Positions 385-54,709 are shown, numbered from the stretch's first letter. The stretch is DNA of 60,384 nucleotides from Fibrobacteria bacterium (GCA_043745805.1 JAYTSD010000021.1:1-60384), one strand, 5' to 3'. Notes: generated by a model not told the origin, from the letters alone. A program made the numbers and translations.

Positions 385-1050
385 ATGATTAATAAAATCA
401 CCAAAGTTCTTTCAATAGCTGCTGTTCTAGTCGTATCCGTTTCAATGGCTCACATTAATACATTGAATATTAAAGGCGGAGAAACATTTACCCCTGGAGC
501 AAAACAAACTATCTCATGGGTCTTGGCGACTGCTCACGGTTCAAGTTTTTCAATTTCCTATTCAAAAGACGGTGGAACCACTTGGGCAAAGGTTGTCGAC
601 AATTTGCCACTAGTAGCGCAAGGAGCAACTGCTAGTTACTCTTGGACCATTCCAACTGAAACTACTACAAAAGGAATGATATGGGTAAACCATGTTACTT
701 CCACCCCTCCAAATTTAACCGGTGCAGACTACAACCTAAAATCCGGCGTTTTTACCGTTGGCCCCACCTCCTCCATCAATACCAACAACACAGAAATCAA
801 AAGCACTTTAGCTTACAACACTTCCACGCAAAGCATTGCCGTTGCTTACTCCTTAGTCAATAACGAGAATGTTACCCTCGAAGCCTTTGATGCCTCTGGT
901 AAATTATTAGTCACTTTGTTAAATCAAAATCAAAATGCAGGGGCTTATAATCAAACGATTTCCACTCAACAAATCGTCGCTAAAGGCCAAATCATTTTCA
1001 AATTAAAAGTGGGAAATGAAGTTTTAGCAGAAAAAAGTATTGCTCGCTAA
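385..1050 (+). CDS. Secreted protein, N-terminal beta-sandwich starting with His, plus T9SS-type C-terminal sorting domain
   Basis: GAGG upstream of ATG 385. Signal peptide ends SMA|H. GGETFTPG...YSKDGGTTW...SYSWTIP Ig-like pattern. Tail VTLEAFDASGKLLVTL...G.Y...IFKLKVG...K resembles T9SS CTDs. Confidence 0.8.
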   Translation: MINKITKVLSIAAVLVVSVSMAHINTLNIKGGETFTPGAKQTISWVLATAHGSSFSISYSKDGGTTWAKVVDNLPLVAQGATASYSWTIPTETTTKGMIWVNHVTSTPPNLTGADYNLKSGVFTVGPTSSINTNNTEIKSTLAYNTSTQSIAVAYSLVNNENVTLEAFDASGKLLVTLLNQNQNAGAYNQTISTQQIVAKGQIIFKLKVGNEVLAEKSIAR

Positions 1051-1071
1051 TTGATTTTTTAAAAGTCATGT

Positions 1072-1102
1072 AAAGCCCAGCCTTAATAGGTTGGGCTTTT
1101 TT
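1072..1102. terminator. Bidirectional intrinsic terminator
   Basis: AAAGCCCAGCCT-taat-AGGTTGGGCTTT followed by a T-run, between convergent genes. Confidence 0.85.
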
Positions 1103-1114
1103 ATTCGTCCAATT

Positions 1115-1606
1115 TTATTTCAATTGCGTTTGAATCAATACATCCAATTCTTTTTCAGCCACAGCGGAATAACCATTCAAGGTTTTTAATAATTGCCCTT
1201 TAGCATCGAAAACGTAAAGCGCGGGAATACCTTCAAAGCCATAAATTTTTGACTGCGTATCTTTTTTATCATGTAAAACCAAATAAGTGATACCCATTTT
1301 TTTAGCGAAGGAAGCCACTTTATTCGCTGTGGTTTTATCTAAACTAATGCCCACTATTTGCAGACCTTTTTCGCCATATTTTTTTTGTAATGACACTAAT
1401 GTGGGAATAGTCTCTTTACAAGAGGCACACCATGTCGCCCAAAAATCTATGATCACCACTTTATTAGCTAACTCCGTTTGTGTATGCATTTTACCCGTTA
1501 TGTCGGGTAAACTAAAAGGCGGTAGCGATTTAATTTCGATGGCATAAAGATTTACACTCAATAAGCCTGCCACAAAAGTACTGGTGAAAATATTTGTAAA
1601 ACGCAT
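1115..1606 (-). CDS. TlpA-family thiol-disulfide oxidoreductase
   Basis: Signal peptide, DFWATWCASC active site, GIPALYVFDAKG cis-Pro region. Confidence 0.92.
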   Translation of the reverse strand: MRFTNIFTSTFVAGLLSVNLYAIEIKSLPPFSLPDITGKMHTQTELANKVVIIDFWATWCASCKETIPTLVSLQKKYGEKGLQIVGISLDKTTANKVASFAKKMGITYLVLHDKKDTQSKIYGFEGIPALYVFDAKGQLLKTLNGYSAVAEKELDVLIQTQLK

Positions 1607-1615
1607 AAATCTCCT

Positions 1616-2899
1616 TTATAAATCAAAGCCTAAGCCGAGCATAAAAGTACCTTCTTGATAGTACTCCCTTGCCGAAAAGAGTTGATAGTGAAAATAATTT
1701 TTGCCATTGCCCTCATCGCCCTTGGTATTGCGAATACCTTGATCATAACTCATATCAAAACGATCGGGTAACCAAGCATTGTCATGCCAACTCTCAGCCA
1801 AAGTAGTGGCAAATTTAACTCCTACTGTGAGAGAAGAAAATTTAGTGTAGCGAATATCAGCGGAGCGATAGAGTTCATCGCCGACATAAGGATCTTTGGC
1901 AAACCCTGTAGCGCTTTGAGCATAACCTCTCACGCGCATTCTAAAATATCTTTCCTCACCAAAATATTGATACCATTGTAATTCGGCATCATCGGCTACC
2001 ATAGCCCAGCTATCCATATAATGCCGCGCTTCTAAATGAATAGATCCCAAATGATCACCCCAACGATAGCCTTGAATAACTTGTCCTGCAATCGCTAAAG
2101 TCTTTTTTTCACGCGGAGTATTTTCTTCAATTACTTTTCCGGAATCGAGAATAATCGGATTGTAAGGATGACCTAAATATCCATTACTATATATGCCATT
2201 TGCGGTGATCGCCACCAAAGTTAAAGGAGTTAATAATTGTGATGCCGATAATGTTAAAGAGCGGATTTGCTTATGACCGCCTTGATCGGCAAAAGCGCCT
2301 TGCGGATGAAAATCATCAAAGAACCACGCTAAGGAAGCGCTGACGGTGGTATTACGTTCATTAAAATCATGAGCAATGGATAAAGTCGGAGAATAGGAGC
2401 GATAATCCGATTCATCACTAAAATAAAAACCCGCCGTATAGACTTGGCCATTATTGGAATACGTAAAACTTGGGTTTTCGGAATGACGCATTTCTTTTTG
2501 CGAAGCACCGGCAATGACATCAAAAGCAGAATCACTCCAAATGTCTTCGAAAGGCTTTCCATTCGCAGCGCGCTTTGAGGCGCCTGAGTTGGCATCCACA
2601 CCATGATCGCCAAGTTTGCCAATTTTATCTAGGCCTAATCGTCGCGATGCACCGGACACCAAATCCAATTCTTGGGACCATTGAAAACTCCAAGCATGAG
2701 ATATTTTTTTAATCCAGTCAAATGCTGGTGTATGATTCCAAACATCATTTTTATCCCAATAATACATGTATTTAAAATCGATGCGATCTTCGGATTCCTC
2801 AGCCTGTATTTTTTTAGGTAACATGGAAGCTATCATTAAAAAACTTAAAGCCATGGAGATCAAGCGAGAAATCTTACTCCGTGGTTTTAACATCCGCAA
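1616..2899 (-). CDS. DUF3570-like outer-membrane beta-barrel protein
   Basis: Signal peptide, DxxSGAS motifs, ESDY.S, NTT, GYLGHPY, Y.DSW, SADIR, C-terminal amphipathic strand (LGLGFDL). Context between DUF4266-like and TlpA genes. Start may be ATG 2893. Confidence 0.82.
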   Translation of the reverse strand: MRMLKPRSKISRLISMALSFLMIASMLPKKIQAEESEDRIDFKYMYYWDKNDVWNHTPAFDWIKKISHAWSFQWSQELDLVSGASRRLGLDKIGKLGDHGVDANSGASKRAANGKPFEDIWSDSAFDVIAGASQKEMRHSENPSFTYSNNGQVYTAGFYFSDESDYRSYSPTLSIAHDFNERNTTVSASLAWFFDDFHPQGAFADQGGHKQIRSLTLSASQLLTPLTLVAITANGIYSNGYLGHPYNPIILDSGKVIEENTPREKKTLAIAGQVIQGYRWGDHLGSIHLEARHYMDSWAMVADDAELQWYQYFGEERYFRMRVRGYAQSATGFAKDPYVGDELYRSADIRYTKFSSLTVGVKFATTLAESWHDNAWLPDRFDMSYDQGIRNTKGDEGNGKNYFHYQLFSAREYYQEGTFMLGLGFDL

Positions 2900-3126
2900 C
2901 CACCACCCGAACCAGCACTTCCACCCGCTGCGCCTTCACGGCGAGGTAGATTATGACCTTGCATACCGCTTCCTAAAGGATCGGGAATGCGTTGCATAAT
3001 GGGATCGCTTAAAAATTCACGGTCCTTTTGATGTACATTTGCGCAACCGGAAAAAACAAAATTCAAACTCAGTAAAACCATTAATAAAAGGAGAGAAGAA
3101 AGTAAAAGCGAAAGCATACTTTTCAT
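2887..3126 (-). CDS. DUF4266-like small lipoprotein
   Basis: Lipobox FSGC, RE.LSDPIM, REGAAGG and terminal GGGCGC. Confidence 0.88.
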   Translation of the reverse strand: MKSMLSLLLSSLLLLMVLLSLNFVFSGCANVHQKDREFLSDPIMQRIPDPLGSGMQGHNLPRREGAAGGSAGSGGGCGC

Positions 3127-3824
3127 ATTGCAGGCTCCTCCCCCTTAAAGCCTTTAATTTTTTTGGAAGGAGCAGGCCATGCCCAAGCACCACCCGTGGG
3201 ATGACAGGCTACCGCAGAACAGGTTTCCATTTTGGGATTGAAGGTTGCCGCAGTGTCATTAAAGCGTTTAAGATCCGTATAGCGTGGATCAAATTTTACA
3301 TCTACAGTTCCATTCAAATGCGCCATGCTGGTAATCCACTCCTGCATTAAAGTCGATCTCGAATTATACGGGACAGGTATGGGATGATGTTCAATTAAGG
3401 TGTCGACATGATGGAAAACATAAGCTCCTTGCAGAATCGAATTACGAAATTGGGTATTGTCTCCAAAATCATAAGTCGAATAGGAGTTGTTAACTTGGTT
3501 TACCGTGTCCATAAAAATACTATCCATGATTTTCACATCACGGGATTGCAAAGAATTATAATGGCAATCAAGGCAAGTGATTTTGCCATTACCGGGTTTC
3601 ATTTTATCGGTATGTAATAAATGATATTGATGATTTACGCCACCCACCGGATAAGTGTGACAACTTGCACAATTAGCCGTTTCTTGCGTTTCTGTTGTTC
3701 GCGTGGCTAAAGCATTTTCTTCAGGAATCCAAGAGTTACATGCCAAGAAAAATAGGCCTAAACTCAAAGGAAAAAAATAGCGCAGATTTGATTTCGAATA
3801 AAAAGATTTATTTAAAAAAAACAT
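3123..3824 (-). CDS. Triheme c-type cytochrome lipoprotein (CxxCH x2, CxxxxCH x1)
   Basis: Lipobox FLAC. Motifs CASCH, CLDCH, CSAVACH. HxxH (HQYH) and AHLNG as candidate distal ligands, as in Geobacter-type CxxxxCH/CxxCH proteins. Confidence 0.8.
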   Translation of the reverse strand: MFFLNKSFYSKSNLRYFFPLSLGLFFLACNSWIPEENALATRTTETQETANCASCHTYPVGGVNHQYHLLHTDKMKPGNGKITCLDCHYNSLQSRDVKIMDSIFMDTVNQVNNSYSTYDFGDNTQFRNSILQGAYVFHHVDTLIEHHPIPVPYNSRSTLMQEWITSMAHLNGTVDVKFDPRYTDLKRFNDTAATFNPKMETCSAVACHPTGGAWAWPAPSKKIKGFKGEEPAI

Positions 3825-3860
3825 GTTTTTAACATACTAAATGAGGTCATAAAAATGCTT

Positions 3861-4700
3861 TTAAAGCAGGGGCCAATCGCCCCGAAAAACCTCTACCGCT
3901 GGTCCGGTCATTTTTACCGAGCCTTGGCCATTATATTCCAAAAGCAAATCGCCACCCAATAAATGAATGGTGATAGCGTCTTCGGTTTTACCTAATTTTT
4001 TGCATACCACCGATACCGCCGAAGCGCCTGTACCACAAGCCCAAGTCTCGCCAGAGCCACGCTCCCAAGTCCTTTGTTTGACTTCTTTACGATTAATTAT
4101 TTGCACAAACTCCACATTTACTTTGCGCGGGAAAAAAGGATGCATTTCAATTAAAGAGCCCACTGCTGCTACGGGGAAATTGTCCACATCGTCCACAAAA
4201 ATCACACAATGAGGGTTTCCCATGGATACAGAACTAAAAGAATAAGTTTTGCCTAAAATTTCGATAGCCTTTGCAAATACTTCGGGAGCATCAAAGGTGG
4301 TGGGGATTTTTAAGCCCTGCAAAATAGGCTCACCCATATCCAAACAAATGCTTTCCGCTTTGCCTTGCGCATCTCGTTTGCGAATAGTTGCGCTGCGCCA
4401 TCCCGCACCCGTCATCAACTTTAATTCATCTTTGCCAAAAGCATAAGTATCATGCACATATTTAGCCACGCAACGCAAACCATTGCCACACATTTCCGAA
4501 ACCGATCCATCGGCATTATACATTTCCATTTCCGCATCAGCGCCGATAAAAGGCTTTATAAGTATAAGGCCATCTCCACCTACTCCAAAATGACGATGTG
4601 AAATATCTATAGCTAAAGCAACTGGATCGGCGATGTAAATTTTGAATGCGTCGATATATACATAATCATTACCCGTACCATGCATTTTTATAAAATTCAT
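3861..4700 (-). CDS. dapF: Diaminopimelate epimerase
   Basis: FIKMHGTGND, EMCGNG, MGNPH, WERGSGETWACGTG. ATG 4700 overlaps the upstream stop (TAATG). Confidence 0.97.
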   Translation of the reverse strand: MNFIKMHGTGNDYVYIDAFKIYIADPVALAIDISHRHFGVGGDGLILIKPFIGADAEMEMYNADGSVSEMCGNGLRCVAKYVHDTYAFGKDELKLMTGAGWRSATIRKRDAQGKAESICLDMGEPILQGLKIPTTFDAPEVFAKAIEILGKTYSFSSVSMGNPHCVIFVDDVDNFPVAAVGSLIEMHPFFPRKVNVEFVQIINRKEVKQRTWERGSGETWACGTGASAVSVVCKKLGKTEDAITIHLLGGDLLLEYNGQGSVKMTGPAVEVFRGDWPLL

Positions 4701-5173
4701 TACCACCCCGATACTGTATGATCTAATAAGACTTTGACCAGCTCTTCTATGGCTAGTTTTTGTCCCGTTTCTTCGGTTTCCCCACGTGTTACGGTATAAT
4801 AGCCGTAACCTGGTAAATTATCTTCTTTATAAAGGGTGTCCCCTTTAATTTTATCCACGAACAAAACCTTCATCAAAATATCGACACGATAACTGGTTAC
4901 GGTAGAGCCACTCGTATTTTGTGCGCTATGATTATACTTTAGCAAGGAGCCAATAAGCCGCGCATCCCCGTTCTCATTTACTTTGCGTAAATTACTGCGC
5001 TTACGAAAACCCTCTTCAATCCCTAATGCTATTTTATCGGGTAGCGAGGATTCTAAAGTTTGATTAATAATGGGTTCTATTTGAATAGTGCGTAAATGAT
5101 TGGGCAAAGTTGTCCCTGAAAAGGAATAGCACCCCATTAGTAAAAAACTTAAACTCCAAATCCACTGCATCAT
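4700..5173 (-). CDS. lptE: LptE-family LPS-assembly lipoprotein
   Basis: Lipobox LMGC followed by YSFSG...LP.HLRTI.I, C-terminal TVSGW, as in FCB LptE homologs. Start uncertain (ORF extends to 5209). Confidence 0.75.
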   Translation of the reverse strand: MMQWIWSLSFLLMGCYSFSGTTLPNHLRTIQIEPIINQTLESSLPDKIALGIEEGFRKRSNLRKVNENGDARLIGSLLKYNHSAQNTSGSTVTSYRVDILMKVLFVDKIKGDTLYKEDNLPGYGYYTVTRGETEETGQKLAIEELVKVLLDHTVSGW

Positions 5174-5186
5174 TGAAAAGTAATAA

Positions 5187-7952
5187 TTACTCGGTTGGAG
5201 TTTCAGCACCTATTCCTAGGGCGGCTAAAGTTTTTTGCACCAAATCCTCTTCCTTTTCCGCAATCACAATATCTTGCGGAAGACTTTTCATAAAAGTGGA
5301 AGAATATTTATCGGAACCTAAACGAGGATCTAAAACCCAAATAGCTTTAGGCTTGCTTTCTCCGGGCAAAAATCTTTGCAATTCGCGCTTCAATTGCAAA
5401 ACCGCTTCTGGAATCACAAATTCAAACAAAGGATTTTTTCCCGCATTGGCAATCTCATCCATACGTGCCGCAACCTTAGGTTCGGAAGGAATTGGGAAAG
5501 GCAATTTAATAACGACTAATAATTCCATGTCCGCTGCGGCGGCATTGGAATCTAAAAAGCCACCCGTACCCAGCAAGCACGATTTATCCCATTGACGAAA
5601 AAGTTGTATCAAGTTTTCGCGACTGCCATCCACATGCTGCGCCAAAAGCATTCTGTCTTTGGTAGCTAACGGCGCTTGTAAATAGGCTTGATGATTCTTT
5701 AAATTTTGCACATTGGTATAAAGCACAAAAGTGTTACGGGGGATTTGCGGCAAAGTGCGCCCCAACATTTCCGCTAGAAATTGTGAACTGCCTTCTTGCG
5801 TGGGCAAAGGGCAAAAACGCGCCATTAAAAAAGCATTCCAAGCGGGTTTATGTTTGTCATAAATAACTTGGGTGAAAAGTTTTTTGCGATTGTTAAAACA
5901 ATAATCTTTTAAGCCGATATTTTTTGTGAAATAGTGAAACTGTTCTTGTACCGACACGGCCGAAGAGATGAATAAAATCGAATCCACATAAGGATAGAGT
6001 TTTTCACTAAATAAACTAGCGGGAGAAAGTGTTTGTGCCGCTAAAAGAATTTTATGCGGATTCAAATATTCTTCCATCCAGTAAATCTCTTCGCCTTCTA
6101 CAGGTTGGCTAATATGGCGAAATTCTCTTTGGAATTTGGAAATGGTTTCGTTTAAACTTTTTAAATCCGGTGCCAAAGCGGCCGCCTCGCCACCACAGCT
6201 TTCCAAAAAGCCATGCAAGGATGTTAACAGCGAAGATACCTCTTCAATAGCTAAAATAACCGGTTCGGGATCCGCGTTAAAATCAAAAGCCAAAGCCGTA
6301 TTATAACGAATTTTACTTTCGCCTTCACGTCTTCTTTTTTTAGCATGTTTCGCAATTTTATTAAAAAACTTTTGCAATTGCTTTTCGGGCTCAAAGGCTT
6401 TTTCCAACAATGCGGCAACTTCCATGCGACGCGCTTCCGGCCATTCTGCCTGTAATCCTTGCAAGGCTCCGCATAAGCCAAAACTATTATCTTTATCCTG
6501 TGCTAAAAGCTGTAAAGCATTGCGCAAGCGAAAAAAAGTAATAGCCGAACCCGTGTACTCAGGAGGAGGATCTAAAAGATTATCGGCTTCATCATAAACC
6601 AAATCATTAAAAGAGGGTAACAATGAAAGGTCTAATTCCAAATTCCGAAAAAACAAAGCCGGATGAATGAGCATAATATGCGAGGCCAAGGCTTTTTGTT
6701 TTGCTTCGGTAGCGTAACTTTCGGAATACCCACCTTCCGCTAAATAAGAATGACTATTTAATTTGGACCATAACAATTTATGTCTATCGGCATTAAATCC
6801 AGCATTTTCTTGTATATCACCCGTAACCGTGCTTTCCGTCCAAGTGAGCAATGGCAAAAAGGCCAGGCATTCTTCAGGAGTTAAATAGCGTTTAGGATTT
6901 TCCAATACTGCGGCAAAACGGCGTTTGCTTAAATAAAATTCAGGGGCCTTTAATACACATAAGCTTGCGTCAGGTTCCATTTTTTCGAGCAAGGGAAATT
7001 CTTTTTTCTCTATTTGTAAACGCAGCGCTTTACTTCCCACCACCACCATAGCTCGTCGACGATGTTGAATGGCTTTTTGAACCAAGGGTAACAAATAAGC
7101 AATGGTTTTACCTAGGCCAGGTTGGGTTTCTAAAACCATCAACTCATCGCGTTGCAAACCCTGTTGAACACGTGAAGCTAAATAGGCTTGGCTATTCCGT
7201 TTGCGATAAACGGTTTCGCTGCTTGCAAGTGCTAAAGCCAATTTTCCTTCCGCAGCAAAAACCGCATTCCAATCTTGGGTCGGAACATATTCCGTGGAAA
7301 GAGCCGACAAAGATTTTTTCACCCCTCCAAAAACAGGTTGCGTAGGAGAATCCGTTTGGGAAAATAAACTCAACCAAATAGAATGGGAGTCCGCTAATAA
7401 TTGATGAATATTGACCAAGGTTTGTTCCGAATAACTTTGCATTTTTTCTTGCGCCAATTTCCATAACCAAACGGTTTTCTCGGCATCGGGAAGTGCACGA
7501 TGGGCAGGTTGCTTAGGTAACTGCAAAGCTTCGGCTAAAGTTTCGAGACGATGATTAGCCAAGGTGGGCCAAGCCAAACGCGCCAAAAATAAAGAATCAA
7601 AAATGGCATTTGACAATACAGGCAAGCCAGCCTTTTGTAAAGCGCTTTGTATAAAGGTGCTATCAAATTCCGCATTGTGAGCAATCAACGGAAGTGCGCC
7701 CGCAAAAACCAAAAAGTCATTGAGTACATTCACTAAGGGATCGCCACTTTTAAGTTCCTCATCGGAAATTCCGGTGAGCTTGCGTACCAATAAACTTAAA
7801 GTCTGTTCACAATGCACCACGCGGCTAAAACGTTCGGTAACCAAGCCGTTTTCCATTTTCACTGCGCCAATTTCGATGATCACATCTTTTTCTGCATCGA
7901 GGCCGGTTGTTTCTAAGTCAAAAGCAATGAAGTGAGTATAGGGTTTAAACAT
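5187..7952 (-). CDS. DEDDh 3'-5' exonuclease fused to DinG-like helicase domain
   Basis: N-terminal FDLETTG, HNAEFD, HRALPDA. C-terminal GLGKT, DEAD, KLPFP.P, LDPR. Confidence 0.9.
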   Translation of the reverse strand: MFKPYTHFIAFDLETTGLDAEKDVIIEIGAVKMENGLVTERFSRVVHCEQTLSLLVRKLTGISDEELKSGDPLVNVLNDFLVFAGALPLIAHNAEFDSTFIQSALQKAGLPVLSNAIFDSLFLARLAWPTLANHRLETLAEALQLPKQPAHRALPDAEKTVWLWKLAQEKMQSYSEQTLVNIHQLLADSHSIWLSLFSQTDSPTQPVFGGVKKSLSALSTEYVPTQDWNAVFAAEGKLALALASSETVYRKRNSQAYLASRVQQGLQRDELMVLETQPGLGKTIAYLLPLVQKAIQHRRRAMVVVGSKALRLQIEKKEFPLLEKMEPDASLCVLKAPEFYLSKRRFAAVLENPKRYLTPEECLAFLPLLTWTESTVTGDIQENAGFNADRHKLLWSKLNSHSYLAEGGYSESYATEAKQKALASHIMLIHPALFFRNLELDLSLLPSFNDLVYDEADNLLDPPPEYTGSAITFFRLRNALQLLAQDKDNSFGLCGALQGLQAEWPEARRMEVAALLEKAFEPEKQLQKFFNKIAKHAKKRRREGESKIRYNTALAFDFNADPEPVILAIEEVSSLLTSLHGFLESCGGEAAALAPDLKSLNETISKFQREFRHISQPVEGEEIYWMEEYLNPHKILLAAQTLSPASLFSEKLYPYVDSILFISSAVSVQEQFHYFTKNIGLKDYCFNNRKKLFTQVIYDKHKPAWNAFLMARFCPLPTQEGSSQFLAEMLGRTLPQIPRNTFVLYTNVQNLKNHQAYLQAPLATKDRMLLAQHVDGSRENLIQLFRQWDKSCLLGTGGFLDSNAAAADMELLVVIKLPFPIPSEPKVAARMDEIANAGKNPLFEFVIPEAVLQLKRELQRFLPGESKPKAIWVLDPRLGSDKYSSTFMKSLPQDIVIAEKEEDLVQKTLAALGIGAETPTE

Positions 7953-24562: not shown

Positions 24563-26611
24563 TTACTGGATAAAAGTAAAGAAGCCTTTAATGTTTTCGC
24601 CACTGGACAGTTTGATTCTATAGTTATAAACTCCGACAGGTAATTCATTACATACCCATGTTATAGTTGTGCCTTCTGCAATCTGACTTTTCGCAAAAAC
24701 CAATTCTCCTTTTGAATTAAAAGCTTGTAAAGTAACCTTTTCGTTACGGCTCAAAAACAACTGTATCTGTCTACCCTTAATTTGAAGCTGTACGAAACTT
24801 TGGTTTAAGTTCTTGGGTGAAATGGATTGAGCACTTATAGGCTTTAGGGCTTGGGAAGTGAAATTACCCTGAATTTTGCCTTCATTCAAATACGCTGATT
24901 TAATTTTCAAGGCGGAAGCGTTCCCGTTTTGATGAACTCTGACTATCCACAAATAAGTATCTGCCTGATCAACCGCATCATCAGTCGCCAGAGAAATTTT
25001 TAGTGAATCACTTTCAACTTTTCTCTCAATTTTACAGACGCCCAAACCAGAATAGACTGAATCTACAGAAATTAAATTAGTCGCTAGTTGCACTGAAAAT
25101 TCACCAGCTTTTAATCCTTGAATATTAGATCCCTTCAAGTGGTACTCATAAACACCACTTCCCAAACTAATGGGATCTTCTATGCTTAGTGCCCCAAGAA
25201 TGGCACTCTTTTTAGTTAGACCTTTTGCATTCGGATTTAATATTGGCAATAATCCAGCACAATGCTGCATGATTAATGAAGCATCATAACTTGTTACCTG
25301 ACCGTCCCCGCTCACATCTTCAATATCACGATTTGAAATGGACTTTAAAGTGTCAAGTCCAACCACCTGCTTAAATATTTTTTTTGCGTCTTCAAGATCC
25401 ACTAAACCATTGCCATCTACATCACCCAATATTTTTTGAGGCTTTCCGATTTGTATGTATCCTTGAGTTTTTGAAAACGAAATTTCAGGTCTTTCATCCA
25501 TCCTAATGCTGTCGAGAATTAAATCAGAAAAATCACCTGCCGAGGCATTCGTTTTGATTTGAAATTTACAACGAAGCAATTCCCCTTCACCATACTGTAT
25601 AGGTTTAATCAAACCACCCAAAGAAATTTTAGTGCAATTACTCGAAACTTTATTCCATTGCGAGGACCAACTGGAGCCAAAGCCACTATCACTTTCTGTG
25701 GAAATAAAACTCACTTTGTTAGAGTCAAACATCAAAGAAAACTGACAGGCCGCTAATGAAAGGTTTCCAAAATTGGTCAAATAAATCGGCACTATAATGG
25801 TATCACCTGGCTTCCCATAGTGAGTTTTCATCCCTAAATTAATTTTAGACAAAAGCCCCGAACCCAATGTAGGCCGATTGGTTTTTTCTGCTACCCAAAC
25901 AGCAGAATCATTATCTCTATAATTATGACTCACACCTCTAATCAATTTATTGCCAGTTGAGTCAAACCAAGCCCAATACACTCCAATTAAGCCACCGCCA
26001 TAATCCACAGAAAAGTTTATACTGTCTCCAATAACTACTCCTTTTAAAGTGCCGGGAGAATGATTACCCCAATCAGCTTGTCCACTTATTTTATCACCTA
26101 TTTGATTGATATAGAGATCACCATAATACAATTGTCCATTCGCATTGGTTTGATGTACATCCCAAAAACCATCGACAACACATTTTTTTGCAACAACCAC
26201 TTTTTCAGCTGTCCAAATTCCAGAGTCGGAAACTAAAATATTATGGGTTTTACCATTAACCATTTTTAATTTTGAGGAGTTCAAAATGGCGATGTATTCC
26301 CCTTTTAAATTTGGGCTAAAAGTGGCTAAAAACTTAATGCTATCTCCTACTAGCTCGCCTTCAATGGAAGATTTTGTATGATTATCCCATTCGGCGATTC
26401 CAGTGATCGAATATCCTGTTTGCTTTATAGTTAAATCCCCATAGTAATTGGTACCATCCTTATTTATTTGATGAACTTTCCAAAGTCCATCAATTGGGGT
26501 TACAGAGAATGCGAATTTAGGTATTACGACCACCAGGAGAAAAAGAAACAACCAAATGCTTCTGTTAAAAAAAATATTTTCGACTTTTGATACTTCTTCA
26601 GAATTGACCAT
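24563..26611 (-). CDS. Secreted protein: two tandem beta repeats, cohesin, dockerin, T9SS-type CTD
   Basis: Repeats DGLWKVHQ/DGFWDVHQ. Cohesin-like GKPGDTIIVPIYL..FSLMFD. Dockerin GDVDGNG.VD..DA and DVSGDG.V...DA. Tail FNSKGELV..LPVGVYNYRI. Confidence 0.82.
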   Translation of the reverse strand: MVNSEEVSKVENIFFNRSIWLFLFLLVVVIPKFAFSVTPIDGLWKVHQINKDGTNYYGDLTIKQTGYSITGIAEWDNHTKSSIEGELVGDSIKFLATFSPNLKGEYIAILNSSKLKMVNGKTHNILVSDSGIWTAEKVVVAKKCVVDGFWDVHQTNANGQLYYGDLYINQIGDKISGQADWGNHSPGTLKGVVIGDSINFSVDYGGGLIGVYWAWFDSTGNKLIRGVSHNYRDNDSAVWVAEKTNRPTLGSGLLSKINLGMKTHYGKPGDTIIVPIYLTNFGNLSLAACQFSLMFDSNKVSFISTESDSGFGSSWSSQWNKVSSNCTKISLGGLIKPIQYGEGELLRCKFQIKTNASAGDFSDLILDSIRMDERPEISFSKTQGYIQIGKPQKILGDVDGNGLVDLEDAKKIFKQVVGLDTLKSISNRDIEDVSGDGQVTSYDASLIMQHCAGLLPILNPNAKGLTKKSAILGALSIEDPISLGSGVYEYHLKGSNIQGLKAGEFSVQLATNLISVDSVYSGLGVCKIERKVESDSLKISLATDDAVDQADTYLWIVRVHQNGNASALKIKSAYLNEGKIQGNFTSQALKPISAQSISPKNLNQSFVQLQIKGRQIQLFLSRNEKVTLQAFNSKGELVFAKSQIAEGTTITWVCNELPVGVYNYRIKLSSGENIKGFFTFIQ

Positions 26612-26743
26612 AGACTTCTCCAAGGGTATTTAACAAGCTAGCAGCCATAAATGTTAATTCTTGAACTCCATAAAAGCAACCCTTTAGATGGGTGAATAAA
26701 GGAAAATTCCCTGTATCCTCTTTAAATTTTACCTTTATAAGCC

Positions 26744-50572: not shown

Positions 50573-51385
50573 TTAAGCACCAAGAGCTTGTAAATAACCT
50601 TCATATTTTTCACGCAAAATTTCTTTATTCTTATTCTTGCGAATACGACGTAAAGCTTGATCACGTAATTGACGTACACGTTCATGAGAAATATTTAAGG
50701 TTTCACCCACTTCGCGCAAAGTTTGTGGCGCTTCGTGATTGATTCCAAATAATCCTTTGATCACTTGAGCTTCGCGTTCTGGTAATTCAGACAATAAATC
50801 CTTAGCTAAATGTTCTACCGCTTGAATTTCGGCTTCAGCTTCAGGATTTACCGCTTTATCATCAGGCAAAACTTCTTGATAAGTGGTTTTGGTATCCGTT
50901 TTTAATGGAGCATCAAATGAAATACCCGCTTCACCCAATTGAATGAGTTCACGAATATCATCACCTAATTCCTTACCTTTAGATTTTTCTTTCAGAGCTT
51001 TGCGTACACGCAAATGCTGATTGGCAGGTAAACGAATAAGTGAACCTTGTTCATTAATTGCTCGGGTGATATAAGCTTTAATCCACCATACGGCATAAGA
51101 AATAAATTTTAAACCACGAGAATGGTCGAAACTTTCAATGGCGCGTATTAAGCCCATTGCGCCTTCGCTAACCAAATCGGGTAGAGGAATTGGGCATCCA
51201 CGATATTGCAGAGCTACTTTGAGAACAAAGCGCATATTTGCACTAACTAATTTTTCACGAGCGGCACGATTACCTTCACGACATAACTTGAACAAGAGGT
51301 GTTCGTCTTTACGGTCGATAGGACTCGTCTTTCGAATATCTTCCAAGTAACGTTTTAGGGTTTCATCGGTCGTATCAAAAGTCAT
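50573..51385 (-). CDS. Short RpoD/SigA-family sigma70 factor
   Basis: Region 1.2 YL.DI, ANMRFV, DLVSEG..GL..A...FD, FISYAVWWI, region 4 TLREVG..L.IS.ERVRQ. Confidence 0.93.
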   Translation of the reverse strand: MTFDTTDETLKRYLEDIRKTSPIDRKDEHLLFKLCREGNRAAREKLVSANMRFVLKVALQYRGCPIPLPDLVSEGAMGLIRAIESFDHSRGLKFISYAVWWIKAYITRAINEQGSLIRLPANQHLRVRKALKEKSKGKELGDDIRELIQLGEAGISFDAPLKTDTKTTYQEVLPDDKAVNPEAEAEIQAVEHLAKDLLSELPEREAQVIKGLFGINHEAPQTLREVGETLNISHERVRQLRDQALRRIRKNKNKEILREKYEGYLQALGA

Positions 51386-51522
51386 TCGTTATCCTTTGCT
51401 TGGTGTCCTGGTTGATTGAATGCAAGTCATCCCAATTTCTGGAATAAACTCGCTTTATTTCCCCTTTTTTCGGCCCATTAAAAGAATGAGAGGGAAAAGT
51501 TATTCGTCGTAACATAAAATGC

Positions 51523-51552
51523 AATATACACTCTTAACCAGATCAAAAGCAA
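51523..51552 (-). promoter_or_regulatory. Putative sigma70-type promoter of the sigma gene
   Basis: Minus strand TTGCTT-18nt-TATATT. Confidence 0.4.
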
Positions 51553-51677
51553 GCATTTTTTAATAAAGTTAAAGATATTCGTCAAGGGAAACTATAACTT
51601 TTAAAAAAAAACCTTTAGACTGCTAAATCAGCTCATTTTAGTGGTTTAAATCTCCAAAAAACGCTTCGGGAAAACTT

Positions 51678-51705
51678 TAAAGAATTGCCATGCAAGTGTC
51701 GATAA
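51678..51705 (+). promoter_or_regulatory. Sigma28 (FliA/SigD)-type promoter
   Basis: TAAA-16nt-GTCGATAA, 27 nt upstream of fliD. Confidence 0.75.
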
Positions 51706-51732
51706 ACCTAGTAAACCCGAATTGTAGGCAAA

Positions 51733-53829
51733 ATGAGTACTATAGGTGGAGCAAATAATCTTTCAGTAGGCGGACTAGCCTCAGGCTTGGATACGAATCA
51801 CATTATTGATGGATTGGTTGGACTCGAACAACAAAGAGTCACCACCGAACAAAATAAGGTGAGCGCCTATCAAGTTAAACTCAGCACGTTTAATGATTTG
51901 GGCACCAAACTAAAAGAATTTAATGATAAGGCTACGAGTCTTGATGATGTAAACTCCTTTAACATTTTCAAAAGTACCTCCTCGGACGAAACCATTGCAA
52001 AAATCACAGGAACTACCAGCGCTGTGGCCGGTAATTATGATTTGCAAGTATTAAACTTAGGCACCACAAATAAAGTAGCATCCAATTCCTATGCTTCCAC
52101 AACCTTAGCTTTAGGGCTTACCGGAAGTTTTACCATCTCGGCATCAACAGCCTCCTTGGTCGCTGATCCCACGACCACCACCATGTCCGTTGATTTAGCG
52201 GCCACGGACACTTTAAGCGATATTGCAAAAAAGATTAATCGCGCAAAGGGATCCGGGGCATCAGCATCTGTTGTGAATTTTGGAAATAATGATTTTCGCT
52301 TAATGTTAACCGGCGTAGATGAGGGCAGCAAAGGCTTTACTTTAACTTCAACTTCAGGAACTACCGTCGGCCCAACAGGGCTGGGAATTATTAGCAATAC
52401 CAAGGCTATACGCTCTTCTACCGAATTCAAATTAGCGGCGGGTGGAGCGGCTGTAGCTGCGACCAAATTAAATACCCTCTTTACTAGCATTGGTGGCAAT
52501 AGCACACTTTCGGTAGGTGACAAAATTCACATTACGGGTACAAAGTCCGATGGTACTGCTGCCGCAGTTACGGATTTTACCATTGCCAACACAGCAACTG
52601 ACGATGTGCAAGGAATAATGACCGCGGTGCAAACGGCTTTTGGTGGTCCAGGTTCCGCAAGCGTAACATTAAATAATTCCGGTGAAATTGTAATCAAATC
52701 CTTGCTAGGCACGCAAACGCAAGATTTAACCTTGAATTTGTCTTTTGTGGATTCCGATGCATCAGGCTCTGCCCTTAGCTTAGGTGCGGGCCAAGTTAAA
52801 AATGATTTTTCAAATGTGGTTTCCGAAGGCAAAAAAGCCTTTTATATGATGAACGGATTATCCGTTTCCTCCCAGAGTAACAAAGACAATACCTTAGTCA
52901 CGGGCACTACTTTTGAATTACTTAAAGTAAGTACGGAAACCGTTAAGCTCACGCTCGATCGAGACAAAGATGGCATTAAAAAGAAAATTCAAGAATTTTT
53001 AGATAGCTATAATAATACCCTAATCTTTATCGATAGCAAAAGCAAAATCAATGTTACCGACCCCACTAAGAATGATCCCTTACAAAAATTAAATAGCAAT
53101 AAACAAGGATCGTTTACCAAAGGACCCTTTGCAGGTGATTCTTCCATATTGGGATTAAAATCACAACTACGAAGCATTATGACTAATTCTATTTCGGAAT
53201 TAAAGGATATGGGTCTTAGTACATACACAAGTTTTGCAGCCATCGGCATTACTTCAAATCAAAAAGATGGCTCCATGAGCATAAACGATACCACCTTTAA
53301 TAGTGCCATGGACGCAGACTTTGAAGGGGTAAGACGTTTATTTGTTACGGGCGGGTATTCTACCAATCCTTTGCATGCCTATGGCACTTCAACCAAGGAT
53401 ACCCAAACTGGTATTTATAATATCACTCCCGCCACCGATCAATTTGATACCTCAAAAGTCCAGGGAACTATTAGTTATGCCACTGCTGCTAGAGTTGAAT
53501 CGGTACTCACATCCAGTACTGGTGATTCAAATGGCTTGGCTATAACTGCTACCACAACTAGCGGAACAGGGCAATTCACTTTTATCCGTGGTATAGCCGG
53601 TCAAGTCACAAAATACAGCAAGCAAATTAATGACTTTGTGAATGGCTTTGTATCCTCCACTACTAAGGGAATCAAATCCCAAATTGAGGATAGCAATAAA
53701 AAAATTTCCACTCTAGAATTAAGAGTTGCCGATACGAAAAAAAAATTAATCACCCAGTTCGCAAATATGGAACAAGCGATTGCAAGATTGCAAAGCCAAA
53801 GTTCGGCTTTTTCAGGACAAATTAAATAA
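51733..53829 (+). CDS. fliD: Flagellar filament cap protein
   Basis: GLASGLDT..II..L, S.SN, F...YN, GDS, C-terminal L..QF..ME.AI..LQSQ. Confidence 0.94.
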   Translation: MSTIGGANNLSVGGLASGLDTNHIIDGLVGLEQQRVTTEQNKVSAYQVKLSTFNDLGTKLKEFNDKATSLDDVNSFNIFKSTSSDETIAKITGTTSAVAGNYDLQVLNLGTTNKVASNSYASTTLALGLTGSFTISASTASLVADPTTTTMSVDLAATDTLSDIAKKINRAKGSGASASVVNFGNNDFRLMLTGVDEGSKGFTLTSTSGTTVGPTGLGIISNTKAIRSSTEFKLAAGGAAVAATKLNTLFTSIGGNSTLSVGDKIHITGTKSDGTAAAVTDFTIANTATDDVQGIMTAVQTAFGGPGSASVTLNNSGEIVIKSLLGTQTQDLTLNLSFVDSDASGSALSLGAGQVKNDFSNVVSEGKKAFYMMNGLSVSSQSNKDNTLVTGTTFELLKVSTETVKLTLDRDKDGIKKKIQEFLDSYNNTLIFIDSKSKINVTDPTKNDPLQKLNSNKQGSFTKGPFAGDSSILGLKSQLRSIMTNSISELKDMGLSTYTSFAAIGITSNQKDGSMSINDTTFNSAMDADFEGVRRLFVTGGYSTNPLHAYGTSTKDTQTGIYNITPATDQFDTSKVQGTISYATAARVESVLTSSTGDSNGLAITATTTSGTGQFTFIRGIAGQVTKYSKQINDFVNGFVSSTTKGIKSQIEDSNKKISTLELRVADTKKKLITQFANMEQAIARLQSQSSAFSGQIK

Positions 53830-53852
53830 AAATTGATTGAGGGAGAAAAGAC

Positions 53853-54281
53853 ATGGCAAATAGTTATCAGAATTACCAAAACACAAATATCAGCACCGCA
53901 GATAAGGGTAAGCTGGTTTTGATGGTATATGACCATTGCATTAAGTGGTTAAAAAAAGCTGAGGAAGAAATGGCTTTGGATGAAGACGCAAAACCTATGA
54001 GCTCTTTGCGGCGCGCACAAGACGGTCTCACAGAATTGCGTTGCAGTTTAAACATGGAAAAAGGCGGAGAAATTTCCAAAAATCTATTCAGTCTTTATGA
54101 ATTTTATTCCTGGCATTTAACCGAAGCTTTACGCGTAAAATCTGCGCAATTTATTCGTGACGTGGTTGAAATGATGAGTGCCTTACGGGAAGCTTGGGCT
54201 TTGGCTATTGAAACCATTCGCCGTGAAGATGCAAATTTACTTAAAGAAAATACGCCCACCCAATTTTCCATGGTGTCTTAA
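53853..54281 (+). CDS. fliS: Flagellin export chaperone
   Basis: YQ...I.TA..GKLVLM.YD, EL..SL.ME.GGEI..NL..LY, LREAW. Confidence 0.94.
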   Translation: MANSYQNYQNTNISTADKGKLVLMVYDHCIKWLKKAEEEMALDEDAKPMSSLRRAQDGLTELRCSLNMEKGGEISKNLFSLYEFYSWHLTEALRVKSAQFIRDVVEMMSALREAWALAIETIRREDANLLKENTPTQFSMVS

Positions 54282-54709
54282 TGAAATTAGGAGATATTCA
54301 TCCCATTACTAAACAATTAGTGGGAGAGCTTGACTTACTCTATGGGCTCTACCAATTGGCGATTGAATATGGCCAAAAAATTACCCCTGATGATGATCAA
54401 GCTGGGCTTTGGCTAGATGCACGTGAAAAAATTCTTCATCGAACTGACATTGCCTCCAAAGAAGTGGTAAAACTTTTACAGCAATTTGAAAGTGTTCCAT
54501 TGACTCCTGCCAATGAAAAAGCCTTAGTAGAAGAAAAGCGTTTTTTAATTGCCGATTTAGGACTTAAAATGAAAGCGGCGGATAACCGAACTTTAAAGGC
54601 TATGCAAATCAAGCTCGCTGAAATCCGCGGTCAAATGGCTTCACAAACGGAAAGAAAAAATGCTATGCGAGCCTATATTCAAGCTCCTTTAGCACAAGCT
54701 TATAACTAA
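54281..54709 (+). CDS. FliT/FlgN-like helical chaperone
   Basis: Coupled to fliS (TAATG). All-helical, ..RE..L, C-terminal AMRAY. Confidence 0.55.
   Translation: MKLGDIHPITKQLVGELDLLYGLYQLAIEYGQKITPDDDQAGLWLDAREKILHRTDIASKEVVKLLQQFESVPLTPANEKALVEEKRFLIADLGLKMKAADNRTLKAMQIKLAEIRGQMASQTERKNAMRAYIQAPLAQAYN

Follow-up and report, generated by a model that had tools for sequence, protein, structure and literature searches.

The closest described relatives of the locus studied here are the 'DsbD systems' of Meheust, Huang, Rivera-Lugo, Banfield and Light (eLife 2021; PMC8238504), which combine ApbE, DUF3570, a thioredoxin-like protein and DUF4266. In that work the DUF3570 protein of Chlorobium luteolum was found by experiment to be flavinylated by ApbE at two [S/T]GA[S/T] motifs, 227 clusters with DsbD and 316 without it were counted, the C-terminal CXC of DUF4266 was considered possibly redox-cycling, and the function of the system is said to be one that 'remains uncertain'. 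The account of DUF3570 in that paper names no cytochrome, barrel or outer membrane. We analyzed a cassette of this kind on the minus strand (3824-1115) of a 60,384-nt stretch of a sediment Fibrobacterota genome (Fibrobacteria bacterium, GCA_043745805.1, JAYTSD010000021.1:1-60384), here called the window, to which coordinates given without a contig or locus name refer. Four open reading frames (ORFs) lie head to tail in it and encode a cytochrome with three heme sites, DUF4266, DUF3570 and a TlpA-like thioredoxin. The cassette is the known DUF3570 module; its cytochrome-led, multi-flavin Fibrobacterota form is new.

Other literature touches the module in few places. JDVT-CTERM proteins are mentioned as adjoining such DUF genes in a few Pseudomonadota, and a 2024 preprint (10.1101/2024.03.13.584918) contains a single mention of outer-membrane localization of flavinylated domains, in which DUF3570 is not named. 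Our literature search retrieved no description of a link between DUF3570 and a cytochrome or of a DUF3570 barrel; Supplementary file 1 of PMC8238504 may list such clusters. A first-pass annotation, made from the sequence of the window alone, had called the function of these families unresolved. This holds for the system, which is still described as uncertain, but not for DUF3570 itself, an experimentally proven substrate of ApbE flavinylation (PMC8238504).

A three-heme cytochrome linked to DUF4266 and DUF3570

The four ORFs and their spacing, read from the sequence, are as the first-pass annotation had given them. The cytochrome gene (3123..3824, minus strand) encodes a lipoprotein c-type cytochrome of 233 amino acids (aa) without Pfam family, and shares an ATGA overlap (3126-3123) with the gene for the DUF4266 lipoprotein (2887..3126, minus strand; 79 aa, PF14086 E 7e-12), whose Gly/Ser-rich tail ends in GGGCGC. 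The latter overlaps by 13 nt (2899-2887) the DUF3570 gene (1616..2899, minus strand; 427 aa, PF12094 E 1.8e-36), an ORF that starts with TTG, with an ATG two codons further in, and whose product is predicted from AlphaFold2 (AF2) and Foldseek results to be a 16-strand outer-membrane beta-barrel. A gap of 9 nt, which includes an AGGAG ahead of the tlpA ATG, leads to the gene for an exported TlpA/ResA-like thioredoxin (1115..1606, minus strand; 163 aa) with the Pfam domains AhpC-TSA, Redoxin and Thioredoxin_8.

In the Fibrobacterota the cytochrome accompanies DUF4266/DUF3570 as a genuine partner throughout the lineage. In a sample of 296 genomes of the phylum, mostly metagenome bins and mutually related, the cytochrome query found 77 places in 34 genomes; DUF3570 is present in 49, including all 34 of those that bear the cytochrome (34/34), and one genus of 101 genomes has neither. 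From the 77 places 40 stretches were examined, the best-scoring first and then at least one per further genome, and the order cytochrome, DUF4266, DUF3570 on one strand is found in 34 of them. Without locus L051 (genome G254) this count becomes 33 of 39; one row per alignment also comes from that genome, and nothing else changes. The order is kept across seven GTDB-level families. Seen from the other side, in a scan of one genome per species with the DUF3570 alignment (A1), the cytochrome stands directly upstream of DUF4266 at 36 of 44 Fibrobacterota DUF3570 genes, and tblastn adds a 37th (L085); three of the remaining genes have the cytochrome after TlpA, two are cut and two have no cytochrome. 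In other phyla (Nitrospirota, Pseudomonadota, Verrucomicrobiota, Myxococcota and others) it was found at none of 38 DUF3570 genes, where apbE lies directly downstream in 25 and TlpA upstream in 20. The cytochrome profile (A2) gave no match in 36 DUF3570-bearing genomes of other phyla, the window gene serving as positive control (E 3.9e-77). Such recurrence of one gene order throughout the phylum goes far beyond chance, and the four genes form one conserved unit. A cytochrome unlinked to DUF3570 in every relative would by the terms of the first-pass annotation have counted against its reading; what the survey shows instead is a lasting partnership.

The new element is the cytochrome, the family of which has neither a Pfam model nor a solved relative. 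It bears all the marks of a c-type cytochrome, with predicted heme attachment: a lipobox FLAC with a predicted lipidated Cys29 (3738..3749, minus strand) and three heme sites, CASCH at residues 52-56 (3657..3671, minus strand), CLDCH at 84-88 (3561..3575, minus strand) and CSAVACH at 202-208 (3201..3221, minus strand). The 'triheme' lipoprotein of the first-pass annotation is thus composed of two CxxCH sites and one CX4CH. In A2, an alignment of 36 homologues, the lipobox cysteine and all three sites are invariant (C29, C52/C55/H56, C84/C87/H88 and C202/C207/H208), as is H169, while H65 and H68 are nearly so; H65, H68 and H169 are candidate distal histidines for the three hemes. Two CxxCH and a C-terminal CX4CH are found in 45 of 47 homologous ORFs, the others being one cut by a contig end and one with CxxCH at the third site.

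No family in Pfam or NCBIfam matches the cytochrome above its cut-off. The sub-threshold Pfam matches are Cytochrome_C7 (15.5 bits, cut-off 24.8) and Cytochrom_CIII (PF02085; 16.8 bits, cut-off 22.9), and residues 169-212 match the CxxxxCH/CxxCH domain TIGR01904 of NCBIfam (23.3 bits, cut-off 27), only the CX4CH half of which is there. The family is a small one: among 1.84 billion representative sequences the cytochrome profile matched 363 proteins at E<=1e-3, of which 116 reach E<=1e-10 and 41 reach E<=1e-30. Full-length matches are of 190-270 aa, and the two that were checked (P0021 and P0040) have no Pfam family. The weaker matches are giant multiheme proteins in which the C-terminal module of the cytochrome is repeated up to 43 times; four giant proteins with several matching stretches were scanned, and Cytochrome_C7 (PF14522) was found in all four and GSu_C4xC__C2xCH (PF09698) in one. 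The atlas look-alikes are likewise c7/GSu_C4xC__C2xCH clusters (score 0.92). A distant relationship to cytochromes c7/c3 is therefore likely. Short heme-site spacing, bis-His-type ligation and one CX4CH site are shared with the c7/c3 and GSu_C4xC__C2xCH modules, whereas the family scores below cut-off and a long beta-hairpin in the model (residues 94-148) set the cytochrome apart. Foldseek with the cytochrome model found nothing in the PDB at E<=0.001, the best of about 48,000 chains compared by VIA-align reached a Z of 3.8, mainly over residues 71-151, and the best hit of a sequence profile search of the PDB was a diheme stretch of NrfA (E 7e-4), none of which is a solved relative; AF2 models of heme proteins built without heme are unreliable, and lack of fold matches does not amount to a new fold.

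Some members of the family have unusual settings. Locus L039 (G253:C70, 6395-15156) contains a tandem-duplicated cassette with four cytochrome paralogues. Other homologues lie within frames of 500-611 aa (L039:10001-11686, L040:6013-7848 and L053:674-2179), which are either N-terminal extensions or over-long ORF calls.

A second DUF3570 cassette is present in the same genome (C18:9110-13976, locus L157). It encodes a 247-aa protein, a 764-aa heme protein, TlpA, a DUF4266 protein ending in GGGCGCSK and a type-b DUF3570 (DUF3570b) with one flavinylation motif. The 764-aa protein has a hydrazine-synthase-alpha middle domain (PF18582, E 2e-20) and two CxxCH sites. The genes overlap or abut, and nuoJKLMN follows directly downstream. 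Heme protein, DUF4266 and DUF3570b occur together in 11 of the 14 loci of relatives examined; among these loci two run into a contig end, a gap precedes TlpA in another and L178 has no TlpA match. Two unrelated heme proteins on the same module in one genome argue that electron exchange between heme and module is the point of the association.

Heme proteins of other kinds were also observed beside the module. In two Nitrospirota loci (L121:3136-4227 and L122:4741-5832) an ORF of 363 aa that has two heme motifs, but lacks a clear Pfam family, is located directly upstream of TlpA-DUF4266-DUF3570; this may be a further case in which a heme protein was paired independently with the module. In two loci of Fibrobacterales (L117:8819-15142 and L114:8784-15050) a block of multiheme cytochromes directly follows TlpA on the opposite strand. 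It is composed of a c554-like protein with 4 heme motifs, a protein with 9 motifs and an MtrC/MtrF-like domain, an 11-motif protein fused to a cytochrome b561 membrane domain, and a NapC/NirT-like protein with 6 motifs.

Barrel model, flavinylation motifs and maturation genes

The DUF3570 protein scores 126 bits against PF12094 (cut-off 25) and has a signal peptide, a hydrophobic N-terminal leader ending in IQA|EE. Its AF2 model (predicted local distance difference test, pLDDT, 79; predicted template modeling score, pTM, 0.75) has 16 long strands, and the best PDB matches found by Foldseek are outer-membrane barrels, with BcsC first (6tzk, E 1.8e-8) and then OccK2, PelB, CymA and AlgE. The beta-barrel proposed by the first-pass annotation is thus borne out by the model and its top matches, which are generic (template modeling, TM, scores of 0.3-0.5 and 6-10% identity). 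Loops amount to about 143 residues on one face of the model and about 32 on the other. Barrels of the outer membrane turn their long loops to the outside and have both termini in the periplasm; by this usual rule the long-loop face of DUF3570 would be the outer one. Strands 3 and 4 are joined on that face by a 54-residue connection, disordered in the model, which carries all three flavinylation motifs.

These motifs are DLVSGAS at the end of strand 3 (residues 79-85; 2645..2665, minus strand), DANSGAS in the middle of the loop (residues 102-108; 2576..2596, minus strand) and DVIAGAS just before strand 4 (residues 127-133; 2501..2521, minus strand), all three recognized as sequence motifs. The column of the first reads Dxx[ST]GA[ST] in 21 of 24 distant DUF3570 proteins, where it is aligned to their single motif. 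The second lies within an insert of the closest subclade of the window protein, with a varied form in a few more distant rows. For the third, D127 and A132 are invariant and S133 nearly invariant in A1. Two motifs were counted in 36 and three in 4 of 43 Fibrobacterota DUF3570 proteins, while 31 of 33 from other phyla and all 14 type-b paralogues have a single one; in the clade that acquired the cytochrome the flavin sites have thus multiplied as well.

The structural matches bear on a reading in which the barrel serves as a channel for substrates instead of a wire. It would then belong to an oxidoreductase or uptake reductase bound to the outer membrane, where a small molecule (a ferric chelate, a sulfur species, a quinone or humic compound, or peroxide) would be reduced or oxidized by the flavins, hemes and thiols. 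BcsC, OccK, CymA and AlgE, among the closest matches, are indeed substrate or polymer channels, and the conserved polar residues E163, D165, Y166 and S168 and a GYLGHPYNP block are placed by A1 and the strand boundaries of the model in loops on the same face as the flavin loop. However, these matches are of the generic kind described above, and no transporter, TonB or iron-uptake gene is found in or beside the window cassette or in the operons of relatives examined. We regard such a channel as distinctly improbable.

The other two proteins of the cassette carry thiols. DUF4266 has a lipobox FSGC (Cys28) and ends in CGC, as the first-pass annotation had noted. In A3, an alignment of 42 DUF4266 sequences of several phyla, C28, R36 and the terminal GGGCGC are invariant, with a Gly/Ser-rich stretch ahead of the terminus; the C-terminal CGC (a CxC; 2890..2898, minus strand) is a candidate redox motif. 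A flexible, thiol-tipped tail on a lipid anchor would suit a part that reaches into or along the barrel. The TlpA-like protein is likewise the exported CxxC thioredoxin that had been described, with CASC at residues 60-63 (1418-1429) behind a signal peptide. It matches AhpC-TSA and Redoxin in Pfam (E 1e-22 to 1e-20), and its NCBIfam matches to ResA (82 bits, cut-off 170) and TlpA (73 bits, cut-off 230) are at the domain level. The protein therefore resembles the TlpA/ResA/CcmG oxidoreductases in signal peptide, thioredoxin fold and WCxxC active site, but falls short of the equivalog cut-offs for ResA and TlpA. A role for TlpA as maturation factor of the cytochrome was set aside. TlpA occurs equally in the cytochrome-free cassettes of other phyla, so it need not be such a factor.

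ApbE is encoded elsewhere in the genome, which is 99% complete in 50 contigs. The first-pass annotation was correct that the window has no apbE, and the contig of the window has none either; the only copy, for a lipoprotein, is on contig C46 (C46:54345-55430). The absence does not, as it had supposed, distinguish the cassette, since apbE is also part of the operon in two relatives (L103 and L100), where the string reads cytochrome-DUF4266-DUF3570-TlpA-CcdA-fn3/Ig-ApbE-NusG_II-Hpre_diP_synt_I and apbE comes three genes past TlpA; it was found inside the fetched stretch at 8 of 40 cytochrome-centred loci. In the window genome a NusG_II-domain gene and then an Hpre_diP_synt_I-family membrane gene follow the C46 apbE. 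The missing local apbE is a mere rearrangement: the string has been split, and the ApbE trio keeps its internal order. A version of the cassette independent of flavin was considered for this reason and is ruled out by the C46 apbE, the operons of relatives and the conserved flavinylation motifs. The ApbE/NusG_II/Hpre_diP_synt_I trio itself (C46:52806-55430, locus L158) is conserved and closes the cytochrome-DUF3570 operon in relatives; its NusG_II and Hpre_diP_synt_I partners may serve flavin supply to ApbE. The small fn3/Ig-domain protein between CcdA and ApbE lies at L103:9499-10062 and L100:9560-10360.

Heme maturation genes are also present, as the first-pass annotation required for its reading: ResB/CcsA are encoded on contig C4 (C4:35362-37496), and a second CcsA-like gene is on C46. 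One three-domain DsbD is encoded on C40, unlinked to the cassette, while in L103 and L100 a CcdA-type DsbD_TM protein comes directly after TlpA.

Direction and reach of the proposed electron relay

We propose that in the Fibrobacterota the ApbE-dependent DUF3570/DUF4266/thioredoxin system takes the form of this cassette, to which a dedicated three-heme lipoprotein cytochrome has been added, and that the cassette probably works as a thiol-flavin-heme electron relay anchored at the outer membrane. Reducing power from the cytoplasm would enter via DsbD, which is unlinked here and has its counterpart in the CcdA of the relatives' operon, and DsbD would reduce the CxxC of periplasmic TlpA. TlpA would exchange with the C-terminal CGC of the DUF4266 lipoprotein, and this dithiol would reduce flavin mononucleotide (FMN) groups attached by ApbE to the serines of the three Dxx[S/A]GAS motifs in the loop between strands 3 and 4. 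The flavins would convert two-electron thiol chemistry into one-electron steps and pass the electrons to three bis-His hemes of the cytochrome, which would hand them to some acceptor at or beyond the outer membrane. We infer every protein-protein contact in this scheme, the direction of the electrons and the acceptor, as well as the membrane side of the flavin loop, of DUF4266 and of the cytochrome. A complex prediction with the cytochrome as partner (DUF3570 residues 34-427, DUF4266 28-79, cytochrome 29-233 and three hemes) gave a score of 0.00 against a mark of 0.32, controls not having been run, and speaks neither for nor against binding.

Electrons may also flow the opposite way. The cytochrome would then take electrons from the respiratory chain, for example from a quinol dehydrogenase of the NapC/NirT type, and feed them to FMN and then to the CGC/CxxC thiols, either as a DsbD-independent reductant for thiol enzymes of the envelope or, in the oxidizing sense, as a disulfide-forming pathway from thiols to the respiratory chain. 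Flavins mediate both directions in the known flavoprotein disulfide reductases, which counts for this reading. At least two heme motifs are found in 17 ORFs of the genome, and one membrane-anchored ORF (C31:32156-32830), with five CxxCH motifs and the size of NapC/NirT, is tentatively taken to be a protein of that type; the second cassette is directly upstream of nuoJ-N, and neither dsbD nor ccdA is linked to the cassette in the window genome. However, CcdA directly after TlpA in the string of the relatives fits thiol electrons coming from the cytoplasm, and an outer-membrane barrel would be an odd scaffold for a purely periplasmic relay. We consider this reversal unlikely.

Whether the relay extends through the membrane is a separate matter. 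The first-pass annotation had inferred a heme-flavin-thiol chain across the outer membrane, of which the conserved unit, the heme partner, the barrel model and the motifs stand. The crossing was drawn from barrel topology, and we consider it unlikely. In its strongest form DUF3570 would be a flavin-lined conduit through the outer membrane, a 'porin-flavin' counterpart of porin-cytochrome complexes that wires the cytoplasmic thioredoxin pool to extracellular one-electron acceptors, and this seems to us improbable. The Gly-rich, CGC-tipped tail of DUF4266 would enter the barrel at one side and the three-heme lipoprotein would be placed at the other, with the lumen between them spanned by two or three FMNs bound covalently to the strand 3-4 loop; the acceptors would be such as Fe(III) or humics in the sediment, and the thioredoxin pool, not the quinone pool, would be the source. 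Unrelated heme proteins, the triheme and the hydrazine-synthase-like diheme one, would be different terminal modules on one common conduit.

Several observations weigh against the relay anchored at the outer membrane as proposed here. The canonical gene order is missing in 6 of the 40 cytochrome-centred stretches (L042, L047, L054, L073, L061 and L066): L061 is cut by a contig end, L066 has the order DUF4266-DUF3570-TlpA-cytochrome, and in the other four the cytochrome has no DUF3570 neighbor, so the family also occurs outside the cassette. The compared genomes, mostly metagenome bins, are akin, and the counts therefore overstate independence. At the first position of its [S/T]GA[S/T] core the third motif (DVIAGAS) has Ala in the window protein versus Ser/Thr in most relatives. 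Model confidence is low for the flavin loop (residues 85-133), whose position inside or outside the barrel the model does not fix. ApbE is periplasmic and the loop is on the normally outer face, so modification would need to precede insertion of the barrel. Finally, most DUF3570 proteins in our sample of other phyla have one motif versus the two conserved motifs reported by Meheust et al. (PMC8238504). This mismatch may mean that our pattern is too strict or that the subfamilies differ. ApbE acting before insertion would fit the published finding that DUF3570 is modified and mostly in the insoluble fraction (PMC8238504).

The stretches without DUF3570 could also be taken to mean that the cytochrome is merely a neighbor, a periplasmic carrier with its own job that travels with the module by operon history, as could the presence of several copies of the family in some genomes (up to six matches). 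This seems very improbable to us, given the order kept in seven families, the ATGA overlap that couples translation of cytochrome and DUF4266, the DUF3570 found in every cytochrome-bearing genome and the unrelated heme protein heading the second cassette.

Transcription unit, surroundings and comparison with known systems

A GC-rich hairpin of 12 bp, found by the terminator scan 16 nt past the tlpA stop and between convergent genes (1072..1099, no strand assigned), is the likely end of the transcription unit as judged from sequence. It is the only convincing one of 8 terminator-like sites in a scan of 900-5400 (4.7 +/- 2.4 in shuffles); the same region has 7 promoter-like sites (12.5 +/- 3.9 in shuffles). 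On the same strand, dapF and then lptE are located upstream of the cytochrome gene. The promoter scan of 900-5400 assigned no promoter to the 36-nt gap after dapF, and this gap has no terminator-like site, so the transcript may begin further upstream. The stretch is present in four DNA runs of one sediment-metagenome study, two of which may be its source, and no RNA run is listed as containing it.

Further features were observed in the window. On the strand of the cassette the gene for a 921-aa protein in which an RNase T-type exonuclease is fused to a DinG-like helicase (5187-7952) overlaps the start of lptE. A cohesin-domain protein (24563-26623) is encoded just ahead of a long polysaccharide-synthesis region (26744-48973), which harbors several GT1, GT2 and GT4 glycosyltransferases together with MBOAT, flippase-like and YfhO-like proteins, a polysaccharide deacetylase and methyltransferases. 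A sigma-70-family factor (regions 2-4), FliD, FliS and one more small ORF are found at 50573-54709, and this sediment Fibrobacterota genome thus encodes flagellar parts.

The DUF3570/DUF4266/thioredoxin/ApbE system occurs in hundreds of genomes, with its flavin proven on one protein and its function uncertain (PMC8238504). With the cassette this system gains a defined redox partner in the form of a small cytochrome with three hemes, which lends itself to spectroscopic tracking and is tied into the operon by overlapping frames across a whole phylum. Together with the barrel model, this turns an 'unknown envelope redox module' into a testable thiol-flavin-heme chain at the outer membrane. Should electrons cross the membrane, a task for which porin-cytochrome complexes are the solution known so far would have a second one, based on flavin, and the thioredoxin pool would be coupled to extracellular reduction. 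Otherwise the cassette remains a clear-cut variant specific to its lineage, with a new cytochrome family that numbers about 40 clusters at E<=1e-30.

Compared with the published 'DsbD system' (PMC8238504), the cassette shares DUF3570 with [S/T]GA[S/T]-type motifs (SGAS at residues 82-85 and 105-108, AGAS at 130-133), a DUF4266 protein that ends in a CxC, and a thioredoxin-like protein that is secreted; ApbE and DsbD are likewise encoded in the genome. It differs in the leading three-heme lipoprotein cytochrome and in its order, cytochrome-DUF4266-DUF3570-TlpA as opposed to TlpA-DUF4266-DUF3570-ApbE. Its thioredoxin is best matched by AhpC-TSA/Redoxin, that of the paper by PF13899, and the Fibrobacterota form has two or three motifs in one loop. 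In the published system apbE is in the same cluster, whereas in the window genome apbE and dsbD are unlinked to the cassette; in the relatives L103 and L100 the operon includes ApbE and CcdA.

The other comparison is with porin-cytochrome conduits. The concept is similar, since an outer-membrane barrel and a lipoprotein multiheme cytochrome are found in both and electrons possibly cross the outer membrane in both. In the MtrCAB-type conduits of Shewanella, an outer-membrane barrel sheathes a periplasmic cytochrome of about ten hemes. There is no relation in sequence or fold, the match to the Mtrc-MtrF domain (E 0.028) being far below the cut-off. The barrel of MtrCAB has 26 strands and that modeled for DUF3570 has 16. 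The cassette has no MtrA-like decaheme protein; its only linked cytochrome has three heme sites, and covalent flavins and thiols would stand in for most of the hemes.

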